A stretch of DNA of 64,000 nt from the NCBI GenBank assembly GCA_963790205.1, contig CAWBNQ010000001.1, positions 800,001 through 864,000 of the forward strand, written 5' to 3'. A model generated the notes under the pieces. It made no database searches. It was not told the DNA's origin and saw nothing but the letters and a program-made list of their open reading frames with translations. Shown here piece by piece: positions 7,193-21,670 of this stretch. The position numbers and the translations under genes were made by a program. The stretch comes from Nitrospirota bacterium. Its GTDB lineage: Bacteria > Nitrospirota > UBA9217. Position 1 is the stretch's first letter. Each line of letters begins with the position of its first letter.

Positions 7193-8806
7193 ATGCGCTT
7201 TTTTCGCTATCGAGGCAGGTTCTTTCAAGGCGTGGGCCTTTTCCTTCGAGTGCTCCTGAGCTACAAGCTCCTCGGCCTCAGGAACGCCTTTGCCTCACCC
7301 GCGGTAAGGCAGGAGCGGCTGAAACGGCTGCACGCTGCCACGGCCCGCCTGCTTCGCGAGCACATGATCGAAATGCGCGGCGTCCTTATCAAGATCGGTC
7401 AGTTCATGTCCTCCCGCGTCGATATCCTGCCCGAGGAGTATACCGACGAGCTCTCGAAGCTCCAGGACCAGGTTCCGCCCGCCCCGTTTGCCGACATCGC
7501 GCGGCGCGTTACGGAAGAGCTCGGGCCCATGGACGAGGTTTTCTCGTCCTTCGACGAAGTCCCGATCGCTTCGGCCTCGCTGGGGCAGGTCCACAAGGCG
7601 TGCCTCAGGGACGGGGACTGCATCGTGGTCAAGGTCCAGTACCCCGGCATCGAAGAGGTGATCGCCGCGGACATGAAGACGCTCAAGTTCGTGATACGCA
7701 TCCTGAGGCTCCTCTTCCGGCATATCAACCTCGACGTGATCTACTCCGAGTTCTCCCGGATCGTCATGGAAGAACTGAATTACCTCCAGGAGGGAAAAAA
7801 CGCCGAGACCTTTGCCCGGAACTTCGCCGAAAACAAGCGGATCGCGATCCCGATGGTCTACTGGCCGTTTACGACGTCCAAGGTGCTTACCCTCGAATAT
7901 CTCGAAGGCATCAAGATAACCGAATTCGACCTGATCGACAAGCAGGGGATCGACCGCAAAGAGGTCGCGCGCATTCTCGCCGAGGCATACGCACAGATGT
8001 TCTTTGTCGACGGCCTGTTCCACGGAGACCCGCATCCCGGCAATATCTTCGTGCGGCCCGGGCCCGAGGTCATCCTCGTGGACTTCGGGATGGTGGACCG
8101 CATTTCGGCGCCGCGGCGAGAGGCGCTTCGCCGCGCCTTTACCGCCATCGTTGACCGCGACGGCCTCGGGTTCGTCCGCGCGCTCGTGGACATGGGGTTC
8201 ATACCGCTCACGAAGGACATCCAGCCGCTCGTGCAGTTCGTCGAGAGAATTTTGTCGAAATACCGCGACCTGTCCGCTTCCGAGTTCAAGGCCATGGACA
8301 TCGATGAAATCGGCCGCGACATCCGGGAGGCGCTCCAACTCAATACGGCGATCCAGATCCCGAACGACTTCATTCTCTTCGGCAGGGTCGTCGGGATGTT
8401 GAACGGCCTCGGTTCGAGGCTTGATCCCGACACCAACATCATAGAGATCGCGGCGCCCTTTGCCAGGCGCTTCATCAAGGCCGAAGAGTTTACGCCCGCC
8501 GGAATACTCAAGAATGCGGCCGTGACCGGACGCGCGCTCGCGAGGCTGCCGAAGCTTCTGGCCGACTTTCTCGTGACCACCAGCCGCGGCGAGACGCGGG
8601 TGGAGATCACCTCGAAGGATATCGTCGAGGAGCTCAGAAAGATCTCGAGCATCGGAAGGGGCTTTATTCTCTCCATCCTCATTGTGGGGCTCGGCATGGC
8701 GTCGCTCTTCCTTCGCATCAATCACTTCAACCGGGAAAGTTTGTGGGCGGCGATCGGCGCAGGGACGCTGCTTCTCTGGCTGGTGCTGAGTTTGAGAAAG
8801 ACCTGA
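7193..8806 (+). CDS. ABC1/UbiB/AarF family atypical kinase
   Basis: IKIGQ, LQD, ASASLGQVH, VKVQYP, HGDPHPGN, DFG; two C-terminal TM helices. Confidence 0.92.
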   Translation: MRFFRYRGRFFQGVGLFLRVLLSYKLLGLRNAFASPAVRQERLKRLHAATARLLREHMIEMRGVLIKIGQFMSSRVDILPEEYTDELSKLQDQVPPAPFADIARRVTEELGPMDEVFSSFDEVPIASASLGQVHKACLRDGDCIVVKVQYPGIEEVIAADMKTLKFVIRILRLLFRHINLDVIYSEFSRIVMEELNYLQEGKNAETFARNFAENKRIAIPMVYWPFTTSKVLTLEYLEGIKITEFDLIDKQGIDRKEVARILAEAYAQMFFVDGLFHGDPHPGNIFVRPGPEVILVDFGMVDRISAPRREALRRAFTAIVDRDGLGFVRALVDMGFIPLTKDIQPLVQFVERILSKYRDLSASEFKAMDIDEIGRDIREALQLNTAIQIPNDFILFGRVVGMLNGLGSRLDPDTNIIEIAAPFARRFIKAEEFTPAGILKNAAVTGRALARLPKLLADFLVTTSRGETRVEITSKDIVEELRKISSIGRGFILSILIVGLGMASLFLRINHFNRESLWAAIGAGTLLLWLVLSLRKT

Positions 8807-8853
8807 GCTTGCACGAAGGCGCAGATGAAGAAGGCGGAACTGGAGGTCCGGCT

Positions 8854-9804
8854 ATGATACGGCTGAAGCGAGCGATCGTTTTCACGCTCACCGCGGCGAT
8901 CGCGGCTGCAATCTCTATAACCTCGTACGCCCATGGCGTCGCGGGACAGCGGTTTTTCCCGACCACCTTTGCCGTGGACGATCCCTTTATTTCCGATGAG
9001 TTTTCCGTGCTCTACAATTCGATAAAGATGAACGACGAGGCAGGGGGGCCGCGGATTCAAACTTCGTCGCTTGACGTGGGATATTCCAAGCGCATCCTGC
9101 CCGACTTCGGCATAGAGGTCGATGAATCTTACCAGCGTCTTCGCACCGATGGAGACGGCACGGTGAGCGGCTTCGGCAATCTCGGGGTGAATGTGAAGTA
9201 CCAGTTCTATACGAGCGCCGAGCATGAGACGATCCTTTCCGCCGGCGTGTCGGATGAGCTCGGCGACACGGGAAACCGCAACGTGGGCTCCGATTCCTTC
9301 TCAACGATATCCCCGGCCTTTTATTTCGGCAAAGGGTTCGGCGACCTGCCGGATTCAGCCGGACTTTTAAGGCCCCTGGCGGTCACCGGGGTCCTTGGCC
9401 TGAATTTCCCCTCGCGTCCTCAAACCGTAACGGTGAACGATCAGACGGGCGAACTCGACACAGCACGCAACCCGACAACACTCACGTGGGCGTTCACTAT
9501 CCAGTACAGCCTCATGTATCTCCAGTCGGCGGTGAAGGACGTGGGGCTCGGCGTTCCGTTCAACCGGATGGTCGCGGTCATCGAGTTTCCCATGGAGACC
9601 TGCCTGAACGGGAACTGTAAACATCAGACGACCGGCACCGTAAACCCGGGGATCGCGTGGATCGGCAAATATACGGAGCTGGGCCTTGCCGCGGAGGTCC
9701 CCATGAACCCGCGGTCCGGAGCAGGTACAGGGATCTTCGTCCTTTTTCATCTTTTCATCGATGATCTCTTTCCGAAAAGCATAGGGAGACCGGTATTTCC
9801 GTGA
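8854..9804 (+). CDS. Exported protein, probable outer-membrane beta-barrel linked to copCD
   Basis: Signal peptide ending AHG, alternating beta-strand pattern, translationally coupled to copC; ATG 8854 after GGAGG. Confidence 0.6.
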   Translation: MIRLKRAIVFTLTAAIAAAISITSYAHGVAGQRFFPTTFAVDDPFISDEFSVLYNSIKMNDEAGGPRIQTSSLDVGYSKRILPDFGIEVDESYQRLRTDGDGTVSGFGNLGVNVKYQFYTSAEHETILSAGVSDELGDTGNRNVGSDSFSTISPAFYFGKGFGDLPDSAGLLRPLAVTGVLGLNFPSRPQTVTVNDQTGELDTARNPTTLTWAFTIQYSLMYLQSAVKDVGLGVPFNRMVAVIEFPMETCLNGNCKHQTTGTVNPGIAWIGKYTELGLAAEVPMNPRSGAGTGIFVLFHLFIDDLFPKSIGRPVFP

Positions 9805-10187
9805 AAAAAACCGCACGATCTTCTGATGTCGGAGCAGCGGCCGCGATCTTGGTCGCGGTGTTTCTCTTCATCATGCCTGCCGCCGCTCAGGGCCACGCAT
9901 ACCCCGACCATGCCGACCCGAAAGTGGGCTCGACCATCTCCGTCGCTCCGACCCAGGTCCGCATCTGGTTCGACAGCGACCTAGAGCCGGTTTTTTCCTC
10001 GATCATGGTTCACACCGCTGACGGCAGGATGGTGGACAAAGGAGACGGGGGCGTGGCTGCGTCCGACCCGACGCTTCTTGAGGTGAGCGTGCCACCCCTG
10101 CCACCGGGCAAATATATCGTCATCTGGAGCGTCGTTGCACGGGACGGGCACCGCACTTCGGGAGACTATACGTTCACGATCAAATGA
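9801..10187 (+). CDS. copC: Copper-binding protein CopC
   Basis: Signal peptide then mature N-terminal His (HAY); C-terminal WSVVARDGH...GDYTF. Confidence 0.9.
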   Translation: MKKTARSSDVGAAAAILVAVFLFIMPAAAQGHAYPDHADPKVGSTISVAPTQVRIWFDSDLEPVFSSIMVHTADGRMVDKGDGGVAASDPTLLEVSVPPLPPGKYIVIWSVVARDGHRTSGDYTFTIK

Positions 10188-10203
10188 GGAGAATCCGGCC
10201 GGC

Positions 10204-12021
10204 ATGAACCTTATTCTTCATATTATCCCGTCGTGGCTGGAGCTCGTGTTCCTGGCCTATTGTATCGGCGCTCTTGCCTGCCGTCTCTGGGTCTTCCCGG
10301 CTTCGGCAAATATGGCTCAGTCCGAACAGGGACAGGTCGGCGACCGCGTGTGGCTTGCCCTTGCCGTCGGTATTGTCCTGACCCTTGCAAGCGGCGCCGT
10401 CAACCTGTTGGTGCGCACGGCAGAGATGAGCGTCAGCCCCCTTTGGGAGGCTTTTTCTTCGCTTCCCGCAGTCGTTTTGAAGACACACTTCGGAGAGGTC
10501 TGGCTCATCCGCATTACGGGTCTTGTCCTCGTGCTGGCGGTCGCATGGGCGGGGAGGACATACCGTGATTCACGATTGATCCTGTATTTTCTCCTCGGCA
10601 TCGGAGCGATCGTCGCCATGACCGAAAGCGCTTCGGGGCACGCCGCGGATGCGGGCGATTTCAGCCTGAATGAAATCGTGGATTGGCTCCATCTTTTTGC
10701 AGCGTCGGTCTGGGGAGGGGGCCTTTTCGTCCTGTCGGCAACGGTTCTTCCTCTTCTCGCCCGGGGGGGGGCTGAGGGAGCGCGTTCGATCGCCGGTGTT
10801 GCCGCGCGTTTTTCCCGGATGGCGGGCATTGCGGTCGGGACAATCGCCCTGACGGCCCTGTACAACGCATGGGTGTACGCGGGCAGCGTGAATGCGCTTC
10901 TCAGAACGCCTTACGGCAGAACGATCATCGTCAAGCTCGTTCTCTTTATCGCCCTTCTTATTCTTGCCGCGTATAACCGCTATGTCCGGGTCCCGCGTTT
11001 ACTGGAACTGGCGAACATGCCGACGCCGCGCAGGAATGTTCCCGGCGGCCTTCTCGCGCCTCTTCTGGCCCCTTTCGTACGCGATGCGGCCGGAGACGCG
11101 GACGTCGCGCGCTTCGCGCGGAGCCTGCGGGTTGAGGCGCTTCTTATAGCCGGCGTGTTCTTTTGCGCCGCTCTCCTCCGCCATGAGGTTCCGGCAAAGC
11201 ATTTTTTACACCTGGAACATGCGGGGGTGCACGCCGACCATGGGCGCATGCACCATGCAGTCCCGGGAGCGGAGCCGGTGATACATCTTGAGACGGACCC
11301 GGCAACGATCATTGCCGGAACGCCGGCAACGCTCACGGTCCGCATTGAAGACGGGAACGGCAGGCCGCTCCAGGGACTGGCCGTCCACCACGAGCGGATC
11401 CTCCATGTCGTCATTATCGGCGAGGACCTGAACGTCTTTGCGCACATTCACCCGGAGGATATCGGCCCGGTCACCACTGCGATGGTGAAGAAGGCGACAT
11501 TCCCGGTGCGGTATGTATTTCCGAAGGCGGGGCGATATCTGATCGGTTTTGACTTCGCCGCATCCGATGCTCTCTACAGCAAACAGGTCGTGCTCACCGT
11601 CTCCGGCGGGCCGCGTATGGGGAGGCAGAAGGTCGATCTCTCGCGGTCGAAGAATTTCGGCCATTATCGGGTCACCCTTTCGACGTCACCAGAAGGCATC
11701 AAGGCGGGAGAGGAGACGGTACTCGCGTATCGCATCGAAAAGGACGGAATGCCGGTGACGGACCTTCAGCCCTATCTGGGCGCCCCGATGCACCTCTCCG
11801 TCGTTCGCGCCGACCTCGCGCAGTTCATGCACATCCACGGGGTCCTGCCGGGTGAGGCTCAAGCCCATGAAGACCATATGCACGCCATGCCTCCCGAAAG
11901 GTTCGGGCCTGAGATCGATGCCGATGTCGTCTTCCCCTCGAAGGGCATCTACAAGATCTTCGGCCAGGTACAACACAAGGGCAAGGTCCTGCTCTTCGAT
12001 TTCATGGTGGAAGTGCAGTAG
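10204..12021 (+). CDS. copD: CopD-family copper transporter fused to a His-rich linker and tandem metal-binding domains
   Basis: SGHAA, WLHL..ASVWGGG, RFS, YG..IIVK; C-terminal half has two LH.V....DL..F.H.H repeats. Confidence 0.8.
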   Translation: MNLILHIIPSWLELVFLAYCIGALACRLWVFPASANMAQSEQGQVGDRVWLALAVGIVLTLASGAVNLLVRTAEMSVSPLWEAFSSLPAVVLKTHFGEVWLIRITGLVLVLAVAWAGRTYRDSRLILYFLLGIGAIVAMTESASGHAADAGDFSLNEIVDWLHLFAASVWGGGLFVLSATVLPLLARGGAEGARSIAGVAARFSRMAGIAVGTIALTALYNAWVYAGSVNALLRTPYGRTIIVKLVLFIALLILAAYNRYVRVPRLLELANMPTPRRNVPGGLLAPLLAPFVRDAAGDADVARFARSLRVEALLIAGVFFCAALLRHEVPAKHFLHLEHAGVHADHGRMHHAVPGAEPVIHLETDPATIIAGTPATLTVRIEDGNGRPLQGLAVHHERILHVVIIGEDLNVFAHIHPEDIGPVTTAMVKKATFPVRYVFPKAGRYLIGFDFAASDALYSKQVVLTVSGGPRMGRQKVDLSRSKNFGHYRVTLSTSPEGIKAGEETVLAYRIEKDGMPVTDLQPYLGAPMHLSVVRADLAQFMHIHGVLPGEAQAHEDHMHAMPPERFGPEIDADVVFPSKGIYKIFGQVQHKGKVLLFDFMVEVQ

Positions 12022-12128
12022 CTGCCGCTTTATTTCATTCCTGCCGTATAACTTACCTGTTCAAATATGATTCCCTTTAGAAACGTTGAAATGCGGGTTG
12101 TGATTGTTTTAAAAAACGGACTGTGCAT

Positions 12129-13022
12129 TTAAGATGTGTGAGTAGGTCTTAAACCTCCTCCCGGGAGAAGCTTGGCTGCCAACCAGCCTGTCGCGTAGAG
12201 TACGCCGAGAAGGGTAACATCCGTCGGGCCGACCGGTAAGTCCCATTGATATGCCATCCAGAAGCCGAAAAACGCGGCCGCGCCGCCGACCAAAGAGGCG
12301 AGCACCGTGAACTGGCGCATGGTGCGCGCGTACTGATGCGCAGTCAGTGCGGGAATCAGCAAGAATCCGAATGCGATGAGCGGGCCCACACTGAGCACTG
12401 CCGTTGAGACGGTTAATCCAATCAGTAAGTAGAGCAAAATATCCCAGAAAATGACATTTTTGCGAAGAATAATTCCCATATCGCGGTCGAACGAGACAAG
12501 GAGCAACTCCTTGTGGAACAGCCCCAGTGCCGCGAGAACGAGCGTAAGCGTCGCCGCCGTCAGCACGAGATCGAAATTGGAGATGGTGATGACCTCCCCT
12601 TTCAGCATATCGAGCCAGCCGATTTCACCGTAAGGGTTTTTTGACAGCACTAAGATGCTGAGCGCGGCGGCCACGACGTAAGCGGTGCCGAGCCGGCCTT
12701 CAGGTTGCCCGCGCCCGCGTCGTTCCAGGAATGCCAGGACCAGGATCGCGACCAGCGAGAATGTTATTGAGCCGGCAAAGGCGAGCGCGTGCGCGCTGTG
12801 TGAGCCGTACTCGGTCAGTTTGAATCCGAGCCACAGAGGAAGCGAGAGCGCGATAGCAACGCCGGTCGAGGAAATCTGAGGCAACGCCACCCCCATGAAC
12901 ACCAGCCGACGCATCACGAGAAACACGCCTACGAGCGGGCAAGCGAAGCCGACGAGCACGCTGGTGTACAGCGAGTTACGGAGAAGAAAATCAAAAGAGA
13001 GAATCTGATGAAGCGTTTCCAT
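12129..13022 (-). CDS. Zn/Mn ABC transporter permease (ZnuB/MntB-like)
   Basis: GVFLVMRRLVF.G.AL, SFD, LLIPA.TA, DLP.GP; ABC-3 family pattern. Confidence 0.88.
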   Translation of the reverse strand: METLHQILSFDFLLRNSLYTSVLVGFACPLVGVFLVMRRLVFMGVALPQISSTGVAIALSLPLWLGFKLTEYGSHSAHALAFAGSITFSLVAILVLAFLERRGRGQPEGRLGTAYVVAAALSILVLSKNPYGEIGWLDMLKGEVITISNFDLVLTAATLTLVLAALGLFHKELLLVSFDRDMGIILRKNVIFWDILLYLLIGLTVSTAVLSVGPLIAFGFLLIPALTAHQYARTMRQFTVLASLVGGAAAFFGFWMAYQWDLPVGPTDVTLLGVLYATGWLAAKLLPGGGLRPTHTS

Positions 13023-13023
13023 G

Positions 13024-13737
13024 TCAGCCCATCCCTATTTCGAATATTTCCGCCATTCGTTCGACGGTGAGCAGTTCGTCGGCCGCCCCGTGGAAAACCT
13101 TGCCCTCGTGCAGCCAGATGACTTTCTCAGCATAGTGGCGGACGGCTGAAAAGTCGTGCGTAACGAGCAGGACCGTGATTTTTCTTTCCTTGCCGATGTG
13201 CGAAATGAACTCCAGCACGGCGGTCGTTGCCTCGCGGTCTACTCCCGCCGTGGGTTCGTCCAGCACCAGGACGTCGGGTCGCGTGGCCAGGGCGCGCGCG
13301 ATGAGCACGCGTTGCTTCTGGCCGCCGGAGAGCTCGGCAAAGCGCTTGTGGGAAAAATCCTCCGCGCCCGCTGCGTGCAGACATTCGCGCGTGAAGGCTC
13401 GTTCGACCGGTGGGATAAGACGTCCCGGGCGTATGCGGCCATAAACGCCCATAAGCGCAACATCGAACCCTGTGAGCAGATACACTGGGTCGAACTGGTT
13501 GGATTGAGGGACATAGCCGAATGTGAGCGGTGCACCTGCCGACGCGGTATCGATGCGGCCCGAGACCGGCGGCAACAGTCCAAGCAGTGTTTTGAGCAGG
13601 GTCGATTTTCCCGAACCGTTGGCCCCGAGGATAGCGGTGAAGCTTGCCCGGGAAATGGAGAGCGTAAGTCCGGACAGTACCGGCTGACCGTTGTAGCCTA
13701 TACTCAGATTTTCCAGTGTGATCAGTGGTTCATTCAT
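13024..13737 (-). CDS. Zn/Mn ABC transporter ATPase (ZnuC-like)
   Basis: Walker A GANGSGKS, GYVPQ, LSGGQKQR, LDEPT, VTHD. Confidence 0.92.
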   Translation of the reverse strand: MNEPLITLENLSIGYNGQPVLSGLTLSISRASFTAILGANGSGKSTLLKTLLGLLPPVSGRIDTASAGAPLTFGYVPQSNQFDPVYLLTGFDVALMGVYGRIRPGRLIPPVERAFTRECLHAAGAEDFSHKRFAELSGGQKQRVLIARALATRPDVLVLDEPTAGVDREATTAVLEFISHIGKERKITVLLVTHDFSAVRHYAEKVIWLHEGKVFHGAADELLTVERMAEIFEIGMG

Positions 13738-13790
13738 CGTCTGTTATGTGGGTGTCCGCCCGGGGACCGGGCGGACACTTTCTCCCTATT

Positions 13791-14723
13791 TTATTTCCTT
13801 GCCTGCACGGCAGTTACCATCGTATGAACGATATAATCCATCATTTTAATGTACGTATCCGTATTGGGCACGCCGCCCGGCATGATCGGCAGAGTGATCA
13901 TGGTCGCGCCGGTCTGTTCGGCGATGATTTTCGGCACCTTTTCGGGAAACTGCGGCTCGCGCACGACGATGGGGACCCGTTCGGCCTTCATCCGGGTGAT
14001 CAGGTCCTCAATGTGGCGCGGCGTCGGATCGATGCCGGGTCTCAGTTCTATCGTGCCGACATAGTCCATGCCGAAGCGCGCCGCAAAGTAAGGCCAGTGC
14101 TCATGATAGGACACGAACTTCACTCCCTTGAGCGGCTTGGCTTCCTTCTCCCACTCGGCTATCTTGGTGTTGAGCCTGGCGAGATACGCATCGCGGTTGC
14201 GCGTGAATTCCGCCTGATACTGGGGGGCAAAGGCCACCAGGGCGTTGTAGATGTTCGCAAGCGCGGTCTTTGCCAATACCGGATCGAGCATGTAATGCGG
14301 GTTGCCGTAGGGGTGCACGTCGCCCGCAGCGTGTCCGGTTGATTTGGGCACATCGCGCGGGATGATGCCTTGCGAGCAGTCCACGTAGCCGGACCTGTTT
14401 ACCTGAATGCGGGGATTCTTGCTGGCTTCAATCAGCGCGGGCAGAAATGCATGCTCGCAATCCAGCCCCACCAGGACCAGCAGATCGGCCCGGTTCAAGA
14501 TCGGCACGAAGCTCGGTTTCATCGGCACCCCGTGCGTGTCTTCGACGCCGGTGGCCAGGCTGTGGACCTCGACCAGGTCCCCGCCCACGGCGCGTGCCAG
14601 GTCCGCGAGGTCGGTAAGCGTCGTGACAATCCGGATTTTGGCGGCATGGGCGGGCGTCGCCCACCCGCACAACGCCCCGAAGAGCGCGCTTATCGATAGT
14701 ACAATGAATAATTTGGATTTCAT
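13791..14723 (-). CDS. Zn/Mn ABC substrate-binding protein (ZnuA/TroA-like)
   Basis: Signal peptide, DTH, GDVHPYGNPHY, YH.. and ELRPG ligands; ATG 14723 after AGGAGA. Confidence 0.88.
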   Translation of the reverse strand: MKSKLFIVLSISALFGALCGWATPAHAAKIRIVTTLTDLADLARAVGGDLVEVHSLATGVEDTHGVPMKPSFVPILNRADLLVLVGLDCEHAFLPALIEASKNPRIQVNRSGYVDCSQGIIPRDVPKSTGHAAGDVHPYGNPHYMLDPVLAKTALANIYNALVAFAPQYQAEFTRNRDAYLARLNTKIAEWEKEAKPLKGVKFVSYHEHWPYFAARFGMDYVGTIELRPGIDPTPRHIEDLITRMKAERVPIVVREPQFPEKVPKIIAEQTGATMITLPIMPGGVPNTDTYIKMMDYIVHTMVTAVQARK

Positions 14724-14745
14724 AGTATATTTCTCCTTTCCAGAG

Positions 14746-16155
14746 TTAACGCTGCTGCCACCCATGCGAGTGCGCGCCGATGATCCACGCCCATTGCAGA
14801 TAAACAGCATTATCAGAGCGCAGGCCGGATTCAGCGTTGGGTTTGGTGTACGTATATTGAAGGCGCAGCTGATTCCAGTGACTGAGTGCCCATGTCATAT
14901 TCGCAGAGTACGCCGAGGTTTTGGCTTGCTTGTTCACCATGTCCTCCAGCGCTTCATATTGGACTCCGTTTGACCATTGTCGGTGCCACTTGTAAATGAG
15001 ATAGGAGTACATGCCATAGGAGCTGACAGATTGTCGGGATACAGGTCCGCCTGAAGGGCCCACGTCGTATCGGTTGTCGCTGTGGAGCACTTCCGTGCCC
15101 CACGTGATGGTCTGGAACTGATTGTTGCGAAGAGGCTTCCAGCTCAGCACCAGGTCCGCTCCCACGAGGCGCCGCTCGCGTTCGGTCAACGTGCTGCCGC
15201 CTACGGTTGGAAACAATGGATTAGCAGGGTCGGGCGCCCACTGCGCAGTCGTCTTCGGGTTCCACAGGCCAGAAATGCCGGGTTCGAGCGAAATATCCGG
15301 CGTCAGGTCGAAATACGTGGACAAGCGGCCCCAATAGTTCAATCCACTCCCCTGACGGAAATCTCCGGCGAAGTTCGGGGGGTTATCACCGCCGAACTGA
15401 TCACCCGCGCCGAGCGTCAGGCTGATGTAGTGCTCGACCGGCACGAGCCAATTAACCTGCAACCCGTCCGTCCTCGACTCGCCGCCGATGTATTGCGCGA
15501 GTACGAGCGGTCGATTCACAAAGGGCAGCTCATGATCGTGGATGTAGCCCAGGCGACCGAATTCGCCGAAGAACCGTCCCGCCTTCACCTCCAGGTTCCC
15601 CGGCAGTGCCGTTGTCTGGATCGCGGCCTCTTCGATTCCCCAGCTCTCTTCGCCGGTGACCGGGTCGGCTGAACCGTTGACCACCACATAGCCCTTCGTG
15701 AACGGGTCCACTGACGCGGCTGCGTTCAGCTCCACCGAACGTTGAAATATATCATACCCCCCGGGACGGTCGCTGCCCGTCTCCGCGGACCCTTTACTGC
15801 GATAGGAGAAGATCGTCTCACCCACGAGCCCGATGGCCGGGTTGAACTCGCTCGGCAGGACTTTCCTTTGCGCTTCGGCCACTTGATCAACCTTCTCGTT
15901 CAGCTCCTGGACCTTCTGCTGGAGTTCTTGGTCTGTTTGCTGCTGCGTCTGGCCCTGTTGAGGCGCCTGGTCCTTTTGCTTTGAGATATTTTTTTTCAAT
16001 GAATCTATGGTATTTTGTTGTTCTTCAATGGTCTTTGACTGGTTTTGTACCGTGTCTTCAAGCTTCTGGAGCCGCTCCGCCGTATCGTCGGCAAAAACTG
16101 CCCGGCTGAACGAGCAGAAAGTAAGAATGCAGAGGATGCACAATACTCGTTTCAT
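14746..16155 (-). CDS. Outer-membrane porin-like protein of the metal-uptake operon
   Basis: Signal peptide, Gln-rich coiled coil, FNPAI, VDP, H.H motif, C-terminal IGAHSH; first gene of the znu-like operon. Confidence 0.7.
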   Translation of the reverse strand: MKRVLCILCILTFCSFSRAVFADDTAERLQKLEDTVQNQSKTIEEQQNTIDSLKKNISKQKDQAPQQGQTQQQTDQELQQKVQELNEKVDQVAEAQRKVLPSEFNPAIGLVGETIFSYRSKGSAETGSDRPGGYDIFQRSVELNAAASVDPFTKGYVVVNGSADPVTGEESWGIEEAAIQTTALPGNLEVKAGRFFGEFGRLGYIHDHELPFVNRPLVLAQYIGGESRTDGLQVNWLVPVEHYISLTLGAGDQFGGDNPPNFAGDFRQGSGLNYWGRLSTYFDLTPDISLEPGISGLWNPKTTAQWAPDPANPLFPTVGGSTLTERERRLVGADLVLSWKPLRNNQFQTITWGTEVLHSDNRYDVGPSGGPVSRQSVSSYGMYSYLIYKWHRQWSNGVQYEALEDMVNKQAKTSAYSANMTWALSHWNQLRLQYTYTKPNAESGLRSDNAVYLQWAWIIGAHSHGWQQR

Positions 16156-16228
16156 AAGGCCCTCCATGGATGATTGATTATGCGCGTAAATGGATCGAGC
16201 AGGCCCCTTATTGCGTTCGGACGCAATT

Positions 16229-16257
16229 TTTCCGAAATGATATAACTATTACGGAAA
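16229..16257. promoter_or_regulatory. Imperfect palindrome: possible Zur/Fur-like box or leader hairpin
   Basis: TTTCCGAAATGATATAACTATTACGGAAA about 75 nt upstream of the porin start; adjacent hairpin ATTGCGT/ACGCAAT 16210-16227. Confidence 0.3.
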
Positions 16258-16349
16258 GATTAAGAAGGAGCTTCCCCTCACGATCAAGCGAAGATCGATA
16301 GGGAAGTCCCGCTCTTACCATTAGATTGTGAGCTGCAATTTGTGGGTAT

Positions 16350-16619
16350 TTACACAGGGGGTGCGCGATTGCGCAGGGAATAGGAAAAGAGATTGCCGGT
16401 AAGGGCCGGAGCGGATGCAATAAAGGTTATTTCGGTAAAACAGGGGACGCCGTCAACGGCAGTGAAAGAGTGGCTGGTTGCGGGCACATGATTAATTGCA
16501 ATACAGATGGGGCAGTCGTGGTCGTCCGCCGTATTTTCATGGTGATGCGATACCACCACGAACGTGGAAGCAAGAAAAATCAGAATGAGAAAAACAGTAA
16601 TGCGTTTGTTCCAGAGCAT
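16350..16619 (-). CDS. DUF2946-like leader protein (signal/TM, HHH, CPIC, C-terminal RAPP)
   Basis: Translation ...SHHHENTADDHDCPIC...SLRNRAPPV; own promoter. Confidence 0.8.
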   Translation of the reverse strand: MLWNKRITVFLILIFLASTFVVVSHHHENTADDHDCPICIAINHVPATSHSFTAVDGVPCFTEITFIASAPALTGNLFSYSLRNRAPPV

Positions 16620-16642
16620 GGAGCCCCTTTCGCTTGATAATG

Positions 16643-16671
16643 AGTCTAAACTATGCCGATGAATTTGTCAA
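16643..16671 (-). promoter_or_regulatory. sigma70 promoter
   Basis: TTGACA-17-TAGACT on minus strand. Confidence 0.7.
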
Positions 16672-16782
16672 GATTTTGTATCCGGAGTGCTTCCGAACAT
16701 GTCATCCTGGGGGTTTTGAAGTGAATCGCTGGAATTAATAGTGCGGAAATGGTGATTAAAAAATAGGGTTTGCGTCCAGACA

Positions 16783-17718
16783 CTAGTTCAGGTAGCGAAC
16801 CGGATTAACAGGCAGGCCGTTGAGCCGGACCTCGTAATGCACATGAGGCCCGGTACTCGACCCGGTATTCCCGGAATACGAGATTATGTCGCCACGCTTC
16901 ACGTGCTGTCCCGGTTTGACGTTTAACCGGGAATTGTGGCCGAAAACGGTCTTAAGACCGTATCCGTGGCTGAGCTCGACCACGTTGCCGTAGCCGGATT
17001 CGAAACCCGCTTTGATAACCACCCCGTCGGCGGGTGCGAGCACGGGGGTGCCGATTTGGGCCGCAATGTCGATGCCCTCATGAAATTGTAACTTGCCGTT
17101 GATCGGAGATATCCTGCTGCCGAACGGAGAAGTGACCCATCCTCGGACCGGCCAGACCGCGGGAGTCGAAGCATAGAGCGAACGTTTGTCCTCAAAGTAT
17201 TCGATCAGGGTCTGCAGGCTCGTCTCCTGCTTCGAAGCCGCCCCCTGGAGCTGAGTCAATTCCTGATGCATTTCCTTGAGCGCCTCGTCCTGTTTCTTTT
17301 CACCGATTGCGGCAAGGTTCTGAAGCCCGAGTTCATCCCGGCCCCCGATACCGAGGAGCAGCTGCGGCTTATCGCGGGGCCTGAGATTTACGGCCCGCCG
17401 CAGCTTCGTGTCCAGGTCGCGGATCAGGAACATCTGGCGTTTATAATCGATCAGGTTGAGGGCGAAGTTCTGGACCCGGGCCTTCTGCTGCATGAGTTCC
17501 TCGCTCATGGACTGCAGTTCAGATACTTTCTCTTGGACGTCATTATATTCATAAAGAAGATAGACTGAAAGGACAAGTGCTCCGGCAAGAAAGAGAAGGG
17601 CAGACTTAATCACTGATTTGGAAATGCTCAGGGTCCTGACGCGCGCATTGGGACCGGGAAGGAACATAAAAGTAACATATTCTTTTTTTCTAACATTTCT
17701 TGAATTCCTACCCCGCAT
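16783..17718 (-). CDS. M23 family Zn metallo-endopeptidase with TM and coiled coil
   Basis: HEGID (HxxxD), GYG, GPHVHYEV (HxH); ATG 17718 after GGAGGA. Confidence 0.92.
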   Translation of the reverse strand: MRGRNSRNVRKKEYVTFMFLPGPNARVRTLSISKSVIKSALLFLAGALVLSVYLLYEYNDVQEKVSELQSMSEELMQQKARVQNFALNLIDYKRQMFLIRDLDTKLRRAVNLRPRDKPQLLLGIGGRDELGLQNLAAIGEKKQDEALKEMHQELTQLQGAASKQETSLQTLIEYFEDKRSLYASTPAVWPVRGWVTSPFGSRISPINGKLQFHEGIDIAAQIGTPVLAPADGVVIKAGFESGYGNVVELSHGYGLKTVFGHNSRLNVKPGQHVKRGDIISYSGNTGSSTGPHVHYEVRLNGLPVNPVRYLN

Positions 17719-17964
17719 GCTTCCTCCTAAAGCAAACAACCGGTTAATGATTTGTTCCCCATCGTGTTATCAACGACATGAACCTAGTCTCCTTAAACAG
17801 AGCTTCTCATTTGCCGGCGCTCTTTAGCTTTTCGCACTGAAGAGAGACCGTTTACGCTTCTTCAACTGCAATGGACGCTATGATTTCTTCCCGGCCGAGC
17901 GAAGAGCGATAGGGAAGTCCAGCTCTTACCACATTAGATTGCAAGACGCAAATGTGGCGGGCGA

Positions 17965-18234
17965 TTACACAGGGGGAGCGTGATTGCGCAGGGAGTAGAA
18001 AAAGAGATTACCGGTAAATACAGGCGAGAGAGCGGCAACTGTTGCTTGCGTGAAACCGGGGACGTTATCAAAAACGGCCGCCCACTGGCTGGTTGCGGGC
18101 AGATGATCAATTGCAACACAGATGGGACAGCCGTGGCTGTCAGCCGTATTTTCATGGTGGTGCGATACAGCCATGAACGTGGAAACAAGGAGAATCAGTA
18201 TTAGGAATGTGGAAATTCGACAACGGCTGATCAT
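17965..18234 (-). CDS. Second DUF2946-like leader protein (paralog; C-terminal HAPP)
   Basis: ...SHHHENTADSHGCPIC...SLRNHAPPV; same length (89 aa) as 16350-16619. Confidence 0.8.
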   Translation of the reverse strand: MISRCRISTFLILILLVSTFMAVSHHHENTADSHGCPICVAIDHLPATSQWAAVFDNVPGFTQATVAALSPVFTGNLFFYSLRNHAPPV

Positions 18235-18257
18235 AGTTTTCCTTTCACCCAAAACAA

Positions 18258-18286
18258 AGATTACTTCTTGTAGTTGAATTTGTCAA
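18258..18286 (-). promoter_or_regulatory. sigma70 promoter
   Basis: TTGACA-17-TAATCT; shares TTGACAAATTCA with the 16643-16671 promoter. Confidence 0.65.
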
Positions 18287-18403
18287 GAAGTTGTTTAAAA
18301 AATGCCGTCAGAAGACAAGCATTGTCGGTGTTTCAAATGCCGGACAACGCAAAATTATAACTTTACGTTGACACCCACATGAAGCGGCACTTATATTGCC
18401 GGT

Positions 18404-18688
18404 ATGAGATGGACAGTCTTACTTGTTCTCGTGGCGGTTCTATCCGGGATCTGTTCTCCTCAAGCCGCGAAAATATACGTCATTCGAGACGGCCACCTGA
18501 TGATCGGCCCACGTGACGTTAGCCGCTCGGCGGCGCCAGTCCTCGCTGCGCATGGCGATGTGCCGTGCCTGAAGACAGGCGCCTGCATCCAGATTCCCGC
18601 GTCACTAATCGCTTATACGAACATTCTTGATCCGGTTTTTCCTCAATTGCTCTTTCCACAACAAAATGACCAGCCTCCGAAAGCGTAG
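18404..18688 (+). CDS. Small exported leader-like protein ending QPPKA
   Basis: Signal peptide, His/Cys residues, Pro-Pro C-terminus; TTGACA-18-TATATT ends 6 nt before ATG. Confidence 0.55.
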   Translation: MRWTVLLVLVAVLSGICSPQAAKIYVIRDGHLMIGPRDVSRSAAPVLAAHGDVPCLKTGACIQIPASLIAYTNILDPVFPQLLFPQQNDQPPKA

Positions 18689-18828
18689 AAAACGCATCAA
18701 TATTAACCACGAGAACACAAAGGTCCCGGGTAAAAAGAGCGCTTGACTCAAAGCCAGCACATGATTTTCGTCGTTCCCTGGCGCCCCGCGGCAAAAAAAT
18801 CCTAAAATGTTTTTCAGAGGCTACTACT

Positions 18829-19797
18829 ATGAAAAAGTCGTTACTCTTGACCTTAACAGCAGCAGCTTTTATTTTTTCGGCGAACGCGAGCTTTGCCTGT
18901 GATTTCTGTCTGTTATCGCAAGGCATTTCGCCGCTCGACACCATGAAAGGAACGGGCATCAAGATCAGCGAGCGGTACACGCTGCTCGATCAGATATACC
19001 AGGGAGCGAGCGAGAAAACGAACCCGGGAGCCAAGGAGACCCATTGGACAACGGAGCTCACCGGATTTTACGGCATCACGCCGGACTTCATGGTGCTGGC
19101 CGTTATTCCGTACAAATACGGCAGAACGACCGGTGAAGCCGACATGACCATGATTCCTTCCCTGCTCGATACCGCGATGGCTGGCGACGCTGCGGGGCTG
19201 GGAGATGTTGCGCTTCTAGGTCGGTACACATTTTTGAAGCAGGAAAATCCTGATGCCACGAACGTCATGGCCGGTCTTGTCGGAATCAAGTTTCCGACCG
19301 GAAGAACGAATGCACGGACGTCGGACGGCATGGATTATCTCGACAGCCACATGCAGCCGGGGACGGGCTCGACGGACTACCTCCTGGGGCTCTCTTTCAG
19401 TCATTCGCTCAGCCGCTTCTCGGTGTCCGCCAACGTGCTCGGCACGATTGCCGGGGCGGGAAAGTTCGGGACCACGGAGCATGAGTTCGGAAACTCCATG
19501 AACTATGACGTGACCGCAAAATATCGCGTTATCCCCAAGCAGTTCTCGCCCATGAAGCCCCAGCTCTTTGCGGCGCTCGGGCTGAACGGAGAAGTGCGGG
19601 AGCGGGAAAAGGAAGACCACGTGACCGTACCGGACTCGGGCGGGAATATCATTTATCTTTCGCCGGGACTGCAGCTCGTGCTCGCGCCGCACTGGATCGT
19701 GGACCTGTCGTACCAGCGCGCGATCTATCACAATCTTTACGGGACCCAGCTCGGCGAAACCTATAAGGCGGTCACCGGGGTGACGTATTTATTTTAA
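18829..19797 (+). CDS. Outer-membrane transporter (MetA-pathway/Phenol_MetA_deg-like beta-barrel) with N-terminal CxxC
   Basis: Signal peptide then CDFC; GLGD, KFPTG, QPGTGS.D; C-terminal TYLF. Confidence 0.75.
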   Translation: MKKSLLLTLTAAAFIFSANASFACDFCLLSQGISPLDTMKGTGIKISERYTLLDQIYQGASEKTNPGAKETHWTTELTGFYGITPDFMVLAVIPYKYGRTTGEADMTMIPSLLDTAMAGDAAGLGDVALLGRYTFLKQENPDATNVMAGLVGIKFPTGRTNARTSDGMDYLDSHMQPGTGSTDYLLGLSFSHSLSRFSVSANVLGTIAGAGKFGTTEHEFGNSMNYDVTAKYRVIPKQFSPMKPQLFAALGLNGEVREREKEDHVTVPDSGGNIIYLSPGLQLVLAPHWIVDLSYQRAIYHNLYGTQLGETYKAVTGVTYLF

Positions 19798-19820
19798 CGA
19801 TCGGAGCGAGACTGAAATAC

Positions 19821-19854
19821 AAAAGGCCGCTGAGAAATCTCAGCGGCCTTTTTT
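19821..19854. terminator. Bidirectional intrinsic terminator
   Basis: AAAAGGCCGCTGAGA-AA-TCTCAGCGGCCTTTTTT between convergent genes. Confidence 0.9.
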
Positions 19855-19881
19855 GCGCATGGCAATCGCGATGTCCGGAGT

Positions 19882-21670
19882 CTACTCCGCCCTCACCAGG
19901 TCCTCGAACCGGATATCCACTCCGAACACGCCGACGATCTCGCTGTTTTCGTTGCTAATGGGCGCAGAGACGGTGATGCAGAGCGCGCCGGTGATCTTCG
20001 AGGTATAGAAGTCCGACACGAAGCTCTTGCCGTCCTTTACGGGGCTGATGAACCACGGCCGGTCCGAAAAATTGTCCCCGAGGCCCGAATGCTCGAACTG
20101 GGCCTTGTACTGGATCTGGGTGATGTTCTTGGTGGTCTTCCTGCCCTCGGCGTTCACCACGTAGGCGAACTGGATAAAGGGGTTCTCGTCCAGCAGTTTT
20201 TGGATAACGGACTCCTGCTTCGCATGGTCCATGGTGCGCATCTCGTTCTTTTCCACCATTCTCTCGACGAGGTGAAGCGATATCTCCTGGGCCTTTTTCT
20301 TGAGCTTGTCCAGGTCGGACACGAAGTATTCGGGCAAATATTTTTTCGTCTTCTCGATCAGCTCGTCGTGAGAGATGCTCGTTGTCCTGCCCTGCTCGTA
20401 CTGTTCCATCACCCACTTGTGCACCTTCGCCAGCCCCGGATGGCGCTTGTCGATCTTCTTGTCCGCATCAAGCTGGAGGTGACTGTTCACCCAGTGGGCG
20501 ATGCCCGCGATGCCGGACTTGTCGGTGATGATGACGCCCATGGGCCGCTTGAGGATCTTCGAGGTGTCGAAGATATTGTAGATCTCCTCGTTCTTCATCA
20601 TGCCGTCGGCATGGATGCCCGCGCTCGTGGAGTTGAACTCGGAGCCCACAAAGGGATAATTGGCCGGGATCGGGAAGTCCATCTCCCTGCGGAAATACTC
20701 GGCCATCTCGGTGATGGCGATGGTGTCGATGCCCGCGTCGTTGCCGGTGAGGCTGATGTAATCGATCAGCATGGCCTCGACGGGCGTGTTGCCCGTGCGC
20801 TCGCCGAATCCCAAGAAGCGCCCCGTTTACCGAAGAGCAGCCGTACATCCACGCAGCGATGCCGTTGACGAGCCCTTTATGGAAGTCGTTATGACCGTGC
20901 CACTCGAGCTGTTCCGACGGAACGCCGCCGTCGTGAATGAGCGCGTAGAAAATTTCAGGAACGCCGCGCGGCAGCGCCGTGCCGGGGAAGGGAAACCCGT
21001 AGCCCATGGTGTCGCAGGCCCTGATCTTGATCGGCACCTTTGCCTGTTCCGAAATCTTCATCAGCTCCTGCGCGAAAGGGATGACGAAGCCGTAGAAGTC
21101 AGCCCGTGTAATGTCTTCGAGGTGGCAGCGGGGAATAATGCCCTGCTCGAGCGCCGTGGCAACGATGTCGAGGTACGCCTTGAGCGCGTCTTTGCGCGAC
21201 ATATTAAGCTTGAGGAAGATGTGATAGTCCGAGCAGGAGGTCAGGATCCCGGTCTCCTTGAGCCCCATCTCCTTCACGAGCTTGAAGTCGTTCTTGTTCG
21301 CCCTGATCCAGCCGGTGATCTCCGGATACCGGTAGCCGCGCTCCCTGCAGAGCCGCACCGCTTCCCGGTCCTTCTCCGAATAGAGGAAAAACTCGGTCTG
21401 GCGGATCACGCCGTTCGGGCCGCTCATGCGGTGCATGAAGTCGAAGATGTCGGCGATCTGCTTCGGCGTATAAGGCGGCCGGGACTGCTGGCCGTCGCGG
21501 AAGGTGGTGTCCGTGATCCAGATGTCCTTGGGGATGTTGGTCTGGATAAGCCGTTCTTCGAGCACCACGCGCGGGACGCTCGCATAGGGGAACATGTCCC
21601 GGTACAGGACCGGCTCCTTCACGTCCTTGAGCTCGAAGGGTGTTTTTGTTGTCTGCTTTTTAATGGTCAA
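19882..21670 (-). CDS. DRE-TIM metallolyase (Re-citrate synthase-like) with C-terminal Cache/PDC-like domain; frameshift near 20810
   Basis: DTTFRDGQQ, CHLED, HGHNDF, G.GERTGN, AGIHADG; removing one G restores ALLGFGERTGN; C-terminus SDRPWF...FYTSKITG.LCITVSAP..GVFGVDI. Confidence 0.78.

Follow-up and report, generated by a model that had tools for sequence, protein, structure and literature searches.

Three short open reading frames (ORFs) lie near one another in a 64,000-nucleotide stretch of a Nitrospirota genome (assembly GCA_963790205.1, contig CAWBNQ010000001.1, positions 800,001 to 864,000), which is called the window here and numbered from its first letter. Judged from sequence, they are leaders of two unrelated families and not members of one regulon. 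ORF1 and its paralog ORF2 resemble CruR, the copper-specific leader of Bordetella pertussis, and ORF3 belongs to what is apparently an undescribed Nitrospirota family, here called ERPP. We consider it rather probable that both families are cis-acting stalling leaders, in which a Pro-Pro arrest and a Cys 51 residues upstream that senses an envelope signal would together decide downstream transcription, with ORF1 responding to zinc. The three ORFs and their promoters are as follows.

16350..16619, minus strand: ORF1, 89 amino acids, RAPPV end; CruR/DUF2946-like, with a hydrophobic N-terminus, H25-H27, C36xxC39 and RAPP at 85-88
17965..18234, minus strand: ORF2, 89 amino acids counted from ATG, HAPPV end; paralog of ORF1
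18404..18688, plus strand: ORF3, 94 amino acids, NDQPPKA end; divergent member of the ERPP family
16643..16671, minus strand: ORF1 promoter, TTGACA-17-TAGACT; consensus scan, 10/12
18258..18286, minus strand: ORF2 promoter, TTGACA-17-TAATCT; found by eye and not reported by the consensus scan; within a DNA repeat
18368..18397, plus strand: ORF3 promoter, TTGACA-18-TATATT, 6 nt before the ATG; consensus scan, 11/12

Two families of leader

A preliminary description of this DNA had drawn attention to the three ORFs, and much of what it recorded holds: their lengths, the RAPPV, HAPPV and QPPKA ends, the HHH and CPIC motifs common to ORF1 and ORF2, the paralogy of these two (64% protein identity, with DNA repeats of 85% and 74%), a TTGACA promoter for each ORF, and the genes that follow. 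These are a porin-like gene with ZnuA, ABC ATPase and ABC-3 permease genes, an M23 peptidase, and a PF13557 barrel with CDFC. Its proposal of a single regulon with RAPP, HAPP and QPP forms side by side does not stand, as ORF3 differs in promoter type, RNA and downstream genes. No homology is detectable between the ORF3 and ORF1 families (hhalign probability 6%). Their geometry is shared. The distance from Cys to the first Pro is 51 residues in 123 of the 142 ERPP proteins where it is measurable, which is that of Cys36-Pro87 in ORF1 and of Cys90-Pro141 in CruR.

The pattern formed by the three ORFs is not a product of chance. When the whole genome was scanned for short ORFs that combine a hydrophobic N-terminus with a RAPP-, HAPP- or ERPP-type end, 11 matches were obtained, comprising six RAPP/HAPP leaders, four ERPP leaders and one shadow ORF, and nine of the 11 carry a Cys 49-52 residues ahead of the PP. 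The reversed and the complemented genome each gave one match, neither with a Cys at that distance. All three ORFs also have the C>G-rich 3' half that marks the Rho site of CruR, with a C-minus-G excess before the PP of 0.22 in ORF1, 0.19 in ORF2 and 0.18 in ORF3 (genomic 95th percentile 0.115, 99th 0.18), a weak feature that arises partly from Pro-rich codons. Searches with NCBIfam gave no meaningful match for any of the three, and Rfam models gave nothing near the gathering score over positions 12000-21000.

The CruR-like family of ORF1

ORF1 matches DUF2946 (PF11162) with an E-value of 0.0024 and 19.1 bits, and ORF2 with 17.7 bits, both below the gathering cut-off of 23.7. That cut-off is passed by three of 46 ORF1 homologs, one of them at 74% identity. 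Both ORFs are filed here as CruR-like, without strict membership of DUF2946. Weak matches to DUF2607 (PF10795) were found for 13 of the 46 homologs (E 0.0015-0.049, all below the cut-off) and none for ORF1 itself.

The C-terminus is well conserved, with RAPP in 31 of the 46 homologs, RGPP in 14 and RGPP farther from the end in one. The spacer between CxxC and this motif is 45 residues in 42 homologs and 46 in three; it is 45 in both ORF1 and ORF2, within the 45 +/- 2 of the CruR test. Across 26 aligned family members H25, C36, C39, P87 and P88 are invariant, and His27 is nearly so. Hydropathy maxima of 2.99 (ORF1) and 2.89 (ORF2) suggest an N-terminal export signal or transmembrane segment, and the AlphaFold2 model of ORF1 consists of a confident helix at 2-24 with low confidence beyond it (predicted local distance difference test score, pLDDT, 62). 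Members occur in 17 of 36 genomes of the same taxonomic family (single query) and in 31 of 201 genomes of the phylum (profile search).

Four further CxxC/RAPP leaders are present in the genome, at C3:1081630(-), C3:1063137(+), C5:268561(-) and C3:618649(-). One heads another porin and ZnuA-type unit, in which the porin appears to be broken up; a small HNH-like gene follows each of two others, and a small Cys-rich gene follows the remaining one. Some of them may have been stranded by rearrangement.

Genes and RNA downstream of ORF1

ORF1 is the first gene behind its own promoter, the layout of which is repeated in homologs, and porin-znuACB starts 182-194 nt downstream. The elements of this unit are as follows.

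16189..16322, minus strand: structured intergenic RNA after ORF1; an outer stem closes inner hairpins and leaves the porin ribosome-binding site free
14746..16155, minus strand: porin-like outer-membrane protein with an N-terminal coiled coil; weak BBP2 match only (E 0.027), without a clear family
13791..14723, minus strand: ZnuA-type metal-binding protein; three His ligands align with ZnuA, with no Asp at the LDPL position
13024..13737, minus strand: ABC ATPase, ZnuC-like (family match)
12129..13022, minus strand: ABC-3 permease, ZnuB-like (family match)

The genomic context is largely conserved. At 30 distinct ORF1-family loci, where the downstream classes were assigned by eye, the gene that follows is a porin of the same type in 21 cases, a TonB receptor in three, an M23 peptidase in one and another gene in five. 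A ZnuA-type gene follows the porin in all three longer regions that show one, and at one further locus of the same genome. The nearest structures to the window's binding protein are those of ZnuA (E 9e-23). Because of this protein and the His/Cys cluster of the leader, zinc is the best guess for the ligand of ORF1, and ORF1 likely controls zinc uptake. The preliminary description had named zinc as the probable metal for all three leaders. The porin/ZnuA synteny and the binding protein favor that choice for ORF1, and the genes downstream of ERPP leaders point to copper or redox instead. A candidate Zur box in the intergenic region after ORF1 was rejected, because in homologs this stretch changes in the way a hairpin does, and locus L006 lacks it.

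Three leaders 70-74% identical to ORF1 (loci L005, L007 and L111) head TonB receptor-ExbB-ExbD-TonB operons; they are followed by the same spacer RNA and by extra sequence before the gene. Convergent on the znu operon, the window carries at 8743-12021 (plus strand) a barrel-like gene, copC, and a copD fusion with a His-rich linker. The barrel-like gene is also found behind an ERPP leader in L033 and close to one in L073.

ORF2 and the M23 peptidase

ORF2 does not head a metal-homeostasis operon; the gene downstream is a peptidase.

17870..17935, minus strand: shortened ORF1-type intergenic hairpin after ORF2 (DNA repeat, folding)
16783..17718, minus strand: M23 peptidase, second genomic copy (family match)

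The synonymous divergence (dS) between ORF1 and ORF2 is 0.62, similar to that from homologs in other genera, and for this reason a recent tandem duplication of ORF1 was rejected. Ratios of nonsynonymous to synonymous divergence (dN/dS) against homologs are 0.29-0.52 for ORF2 (dS about 0.5-0.9) and 0.28-0.38 for ORF1. ORF2 thus reads as an old paralog, mostly under purifying selection. HAPP had been taken for a natural variant of the family, a view the homologs do not support: it is present in none of the 46 homologous proteins and at one of the 30 distinct loci, ORF2 itself. Its His codon, CAC, is one base from the Arg codon CGC, and is kept in the one related-strain contig checked (run X1). 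By analogy with known arrest peptides, HAPP arrest in ORF2 would probably be weaker.

The window M23 protein is 80% identical to another copy in the genome. At all 23 other informative M23 loci (two of 25 further rows were dropped, the gene beginning at the contig end) the gene has its own TTGAC promoter and no ORF2-type leader. The window M23 gene lacks that promoter, and its transcription therefore probably depends on the ORF2 promoter. A conserved leader-M23 unit, and with it the regulon link that had been drawn between ORF2 and the peptidase, was rejected since the association is absent from those 23 loci; the arrangement is lineage-specific. In contigs of a near-identical strain the ORF2-M23 junction is kept, with 101 nt of the spacer missing. 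Immediately ahead of the M23 gene, and overlapping those 101 nt in part, is an 11-codon mini ORF (17744-17779, minus strand) that has a good Shine-Dalgarno sequence.

The ERPP family

ORF3 shows clear homology to the ERPP family (E 6.5e-31), whose members are about 94 amino acids long. By profile search, 78 of 301 Nitrospirota genomes, from 13 families, carry members. ORF3 has three paralogs in its own genome, 27 of 60 sampled genomes contain relatives, and all 28 named loci related to it are from Nitrospirota. One collection holds 401 ERPP proteins, and there are 428 representatives at 50% identity. No Pfam family matches ERPP (PF11162 is matched by none of 20 members), and the ESM Atlas offers a feature-level lead only, 0.93 to a cluster with 22% DUF2946. 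A literature search, with most subscription papers outside its reach and with the cluster lists of PMC9973294 possibly including ERPP, found no paper on this family or on a zinc-sensing RAPP leader.

All 120 close members and all 150 diverse members, the latter being the best 150 of the 428 representatives, have Cys40. The protein ends in E/D-R/H/Q-P-P. Of 145 members, 140 have an acidic residue at position -2, and 19 show the less common QPP form. The length is fixed, and the PP lies 2-3 residues from the stop in all 120 close members. Conservation is poor in the middle of the protein, and an AlphaFold2 model of one member is of low confidence beyond the N-terminal helix (pLDDT 59).

The window copy is an unusual member. 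It has Ser40-Arg41 in place of the invariant Cys40, a DQPP end, and 27-40% identity to the family. Contigs of the near-identical strain (runs X1 and X2) have T instead of A at 18521, which gives Cys40, and Ser40 is therefore either a recent change or an assembly error. The 'Cys pair' noted earlier in ORF3, C55/C61, is unconserved in the wider family, where the conserved residue is Cys40. Reading the QPP end as a variant of RAPP or QAPP was rejected on register, with Gln at -1 and not at -2.

Three intact ERPP leaders are found elsewhere in the genome, at C5:344175-344459(+), C5:294107-294391(+) and C10:122184-122468(-). Each has Cys40-His41, the upstream palindrome and the full terminator/antiterminator described below, and the genes after them are of TlpA or split-Soret-like type. 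The copy at C5:294 kb is near-identical to that on C10.

Promoter, palindrome and attenuator RNA of the ERPP family

At 59 of 69 ERPP loci the start codon is preceded, at a distance of 33-38 nt, by TTGAC, which holds for 58 of 3548 long ORFs. Between the -10 box and the ATG the most frequent distance is 6 nt, which makes a leaderless ERPP mRNA likely. A second element is kept directly upstream of the promoter.

18350..18365, no strand assigned: palindromic motif, consensus TAAAATTATAATTTTA, directly upstream of the ORF3 -35 box and kept in the ERPP family

This 16-bp palindrome has a self-complementarity of 10.0/16 (6.1 when shuffled), and the window copy scores 18.5 bits; it is likely an operator. 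Scanning the genome returned 52 matches of at least 15 bits, many of them probably AT-rich noise. Strong matches without an ERPP leader lie at C1:889664, C11:148438 and C14:189529. The genes that they precede encode an outer-membrane transporter, accompanied by a TusA-like gene, and a beta-propeller protein, or form a cluster of ArsR/DsrE-like type (labels given by reading the translations, with no family scan). These sites hint at a sulfur-related regulon.

After the ERPP stop codon, segment A (+14 to +27 nt, at ribosome-footprint distance from the stop) is complementary to a segment B, which can alternatively form a long stem with a segment C that is followed by a U-tract. The B:C terminator stem is 92% paired over 21 selected sequences, and 5 of its 19 pairs are changed on both sides. 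This covariation score is reached by none of 500 shuffles, and slid controls are 39-48% paired. The A:B pairing is 82% and nearly invariant. A profile of the RNA (nhmmer) matches 48 of 68 ERPP loci, a count that includes the 21 rows of its training alignment; in the window's own genome it matches solely the three other ERPP copies, with no match at the window ORF3. L027, which has the same barrel gene as the ORF3 locus, also lacks the attenuator. The ERPP leader probably switches a terminator of downstream transcription.

Genes downstream of ERPP leaders

The ERPP gene always heads its unit, ahead of many different genes. By rough, regex-based counts, 68 ERPP loci are followed by Tat-exported split-Soret-like C_GCAxxG_C_C proteins in 24 cases, TlpA/ResA thioredoxins in 13 and CxxC barrels in 8; others include TonB receptors (one with a TonB-copper best match), NosL, multiheme cytochromes, Met-rich lipoproteins and YedF. 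Because of these gene types, the sequence context suggests copper or sulfur/redox rather than zinc as the ERPP signal. In the window the leader is followed by a CxxC barrel, an ortholog of which comes after the ERPP leader in L027 and L162.

18829..19797, plus strand: beta-barrel protein with an N-terminal CxxC (begins CDFC); PF13557, E 2.4e-8
19821..19852, no strand assigned: perfect inverted repeat with T/A tails, likely terminator of the barrel unit (repeat search)

In L167 (905-1798, minus strand) an ERPP leader heads an ExtKL-type multiheme (seleno)cytochrome, and in L166 (1689-2339, plus strand) one heads a unit with the selenium-metabolism protein YedF. Farther along the window a gene appears to be split over two frames near 20800 (20468-21670 and 19882-20814, minus strand), by frameshift or assembly error; we take it to be isopropylmalate/homocitrate-synthase-like.

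Comparison with known systems

CruR (Bp2923) has 45 residues between CxxC and RAPP, a distance that tolerates only small changes (PMC9426467), and in vitro it arrests at RAPP, the P and A sites being occupied by the two Pro codons (PMC12992588). It is copper-specific, with a moderate effect of zinc only. ORF1 shares with it the export signal, the CxxC, the 45-residue spacer, the C-terminal RAPP, the place as first gene of a metal-uptake operon, the long intergenic region and the C>G-rich 3' half. It differs in its length (89 amino acids instead of 145), its score below the PF11162 cut-off, an invariant His ahead of CxxC, its occurrence in Nitrospirota, the conserved multibranch RNA that follows, and the porin and ZnuA/ABC-3 importer that it heads, where CruR heads a TonB copper transporter. 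ORF2 differs from CruR in HAPP. The likeness to CruR seen earlier in all three ORFs is borne out for ORF1, in geometry and motifs, and fails for ORF3, which lacks both CxxC and RAPP, carries an acidic residue in the place of the RAPP Arg, and shows no homology by hhalign.

CutF, a leader of Rhodobacter capsulatus, is short and exported, has Cys/His ligands and ends in PPP; it stalls with copper and opens a hairpin over a ribosome-binding site (PMC9973294). Its logic is the opposite of the arrest-on model proposed below, and its export signal is required, while that of CruR is dispensable. All three window ORFs conform to the broad rule for CutF-like leaders (fewer than 150 amino acids, hydrophobic N-terminus, PP in the last 15 residues), for which 29 clusters have been published (bioRxiv 10.1101/2025.02.05.636593, PMC9973294). 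The ERPP family conforms to it as well, including a signal peptide and a same-strand gene less than 1 kb away, and many close members have a CxxxC as a further likeness to CutF. ERPP is set apart by its one invariant Cys, the E/D-R/H/Q-PP end, the likely leaderless start and the terminator/antiterminator. The main text of the CutF-like survey makes no mention of zinc, ZnuA or Nitrospirota. Published surveys extend RAPP-type leaders beyond copper, to Ni/Co-type neighbours and diverse genes.

Arrest peptides of the RQH family, such as ApdA and ApdP, are small proteins with a localization signal and R/H-A-P-P ends, and natural examples include HAPP in uDF_RQH_Lachnospirales and QAPP in uA_RQH_Myxococcales (PMC10987492, PMC10951233). 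R/HxPP was also recovered in a selection cited by PMC10951233. ORF2 fits the RQH motif R/Q/H-A/G-P-P, HAPP being a natural arrest motif; DQPP in ORF3 differs from RQH QAPP in having Gln at -1 and not at -2. RQH peptides precede sec/yidC genes and have no metal cluster, whereas ORF2 and ORF3 precede an M23 peptidase and a CxxC barrel.

ShyB of Vibrio cholerae is an M23 enzyme. This wall endopeptidase is under Zur control, and resembles the peptidase after ORF2 as a spare peptidoglycan endopeptidase under possible zinc control; Zur acts at its promoter and its homologs recur across genera (PMC6381278), whereas the ORF2-M23 link is seen in this genome and the near-identical strain only.

Proposed mechanism and alternatives

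In the mechanism that we propose, a membrane-targeted nascent peptide would stall its ribosome at the C-terminal Pro-Pro, in a process coupled to secretion, while the Cys 51 residues upstream senses an envelope signal. The stall would decide whether the downstream genes, presumably co-transcribed with the leader, are transcribed, with arrest meaning on and release leading to a transcription stop. When zinc is scarce, a ribosome arrested on the RAPP of ORF1 would cover the C-rich 3' half, and the porin-znuACB mRNA would continue; zinc bound by the His25/His27/Cys36/Cys39 cluster would release the arrest and bring about termination. This termination would occur via Rho for ORF1, by analogy with CruR, and via an intrinsic terminator at most ERPP loci. 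At an intact ERPP locus the stalled ribosome would leave A free to pair with B, so that the B:C terminator is prevented, and the signal is probably thiol-reactive, e.g. copper or the sulfur/redox state. After ribosome release, segment A might be blocked through the action of Rho at the C-rich end of the coding region. ORF2, an older paralog, would arrest on HAPP, probably less strongly, and in this lineage stands ahead of a second M23 gene without a promoter; the window ORF3 would be a copy that has lost the attenuator RNA and, in this assembly, the Cys. The sequences, their conservation and geometry, the synteny and the covariation of the terminator are direct results, while stalling, the ligand, the direction of control and co-transcription are inferred.

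A number of observations weigh against this mechanism. ORF1 and ORF2 are both under the Pfam cut-off, and the spacer RNA of ORF1 shows weak covariation, with 2 of 27 pairs changed on both sides among nine close sequences. Three of the 30 ORF1-family loci head TonB receptors and five head unrelated genes, so the ligand may vary within the family, and zinc could instead be handled by a transcriptional regulator, given the three Fur-family genes of the genome. As for arrest, the Arg is irreplaceable in ApcA, ApdA and ApdP, most RAPP-like sequences from ordinary proteins did not stall, a natural HAPP peptide that arrests in vitro did so less well in vivo (PMC10987492), and ERPP matches no tested arrest motif. 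The attenuator RNA is missing at 20 of 68 ERPP loci, and training rows contribute to the positive count. The antiterminator A:B, being nearly invariant, shows no covariation, and a search for a conserved anti-antiterminator in the coding region that would block segment A gave no consistent pairing. Masking the ribosome-covered region raises the predicted A:B pairing from 0.53 to 0.83 (29 loci, no control), which is suggestive.

Several other explanations bear on ORF1 and its neighbours. ORF1 could be a stalling leader for another metal (Co, Ni, Mn or Cu) or for several, since its close relatives head TonB-ExbBD operons, cluster A-I binding proteins are promiscuous, CruR is copper-specific, and copC and copD adjoin the znu operon. 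We think this unlikely: the best structural matches of the binding protein are ZnuA, with a site of three His and no Asp, the invariant His with CxxC would make a zinc-type ligand set, and the cop genes are on the opposite strand. Still less credible is the original idea of one zinc regulon with three functional leaders in RAPP, HAPP and QPP variants. It would account for the adjacency of the ORFs, the Cys-to-Pro register shared at family level, the C-rich 3' halves and the overall purifying selection on ORF2, and a Zur-controlled cell-wall endopeptidase provides a precedent (PMC6381278); it is countered by the lack of homology between the families, the redox and copper-chaperone-like targets of ERPP, the unconserved ORF2-M23 link, and the window ORF3 without the family Cys and RNA. 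A reading of ORF2 and the window ORF3 as decaying relics that supply promoters, leaving ORF1 as the sole working switch here, is more serious, although we lean against it. It is consistent with R85H as a singleton, the truncated RNA after ORF2 with 101 nt of spacer missing in the near-identical strain, and the C40S change, low family identity and missing attenuator of ORF3. Yet the frames, lengths and promoters of both ORFs are intact, the dN/dS of ORF2 points to constraint, the related strain keeps Cys40 and, in the run X1 contig, the His codon, and L027 is likewise without an attenuator.

The ERPP peptides might also be small exported proteins without arrest, their terminator being switched by an RNA-binding protein or ligand or allowing a fixed readthrough. 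The Arg at -2 needed for RAPP arrest is lacking, no anti-antiterminator was found, 20 of 68 loci are without the RNA, and the conserved upstream palindrome offers transcriptional control. This explanation seems doubtful to us, as it leaves aside the fixed length, the PP next to the stop in every close member, the 51-residue Cys-to-Pro distance of CruR and ORF1, a poorly conserved middle without a confident fold, the constant place at the head of units with many different genes, and the position of segment A at a ribosome footprint from the stop. If ERPP leaders do stall, they may form a new class of arrest peptide, an idea that we hold tentatively and with slightly more doubt than belief. This class would combine a leaderless mRNA, an acidic-basic-Pro-Pro stall outside the RAPP rule, periplasmic thiol-reactive sensing by a single Cys (copper, sulfane sulfur, redox) and a terminator switch for split-Soret-like cytochromes, TlpA and copper-chaperone-like genes across Nitrospirota. 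Its 51-residue geometry would have arisen independently, and it would stand beside ORF1 as a zinc-sensing leader of CruR type.

Implications

In the part of the literature covered here, nascent-chain metal sensing has been shown for copper only, by CruR and CutF, and ORF1 is a compact test case for such sensing of zinc. The ERPP family carries more weight than ORF1, and is best studied in the intact copies of this genome. If the proposed mechanism is true, its motif breaks the rule of an irreplaceable RAPP Arg, and the element coupled to its exported sensor peptide is an intrinsic terminator, not Rho or a hidden ribosome-binding site. The presence of a Cys 51 residues before the P-site Pro in two unrelated families would make the effect of a ligand on nascent-chain pull testable, with hundreds of natural variants at hand.

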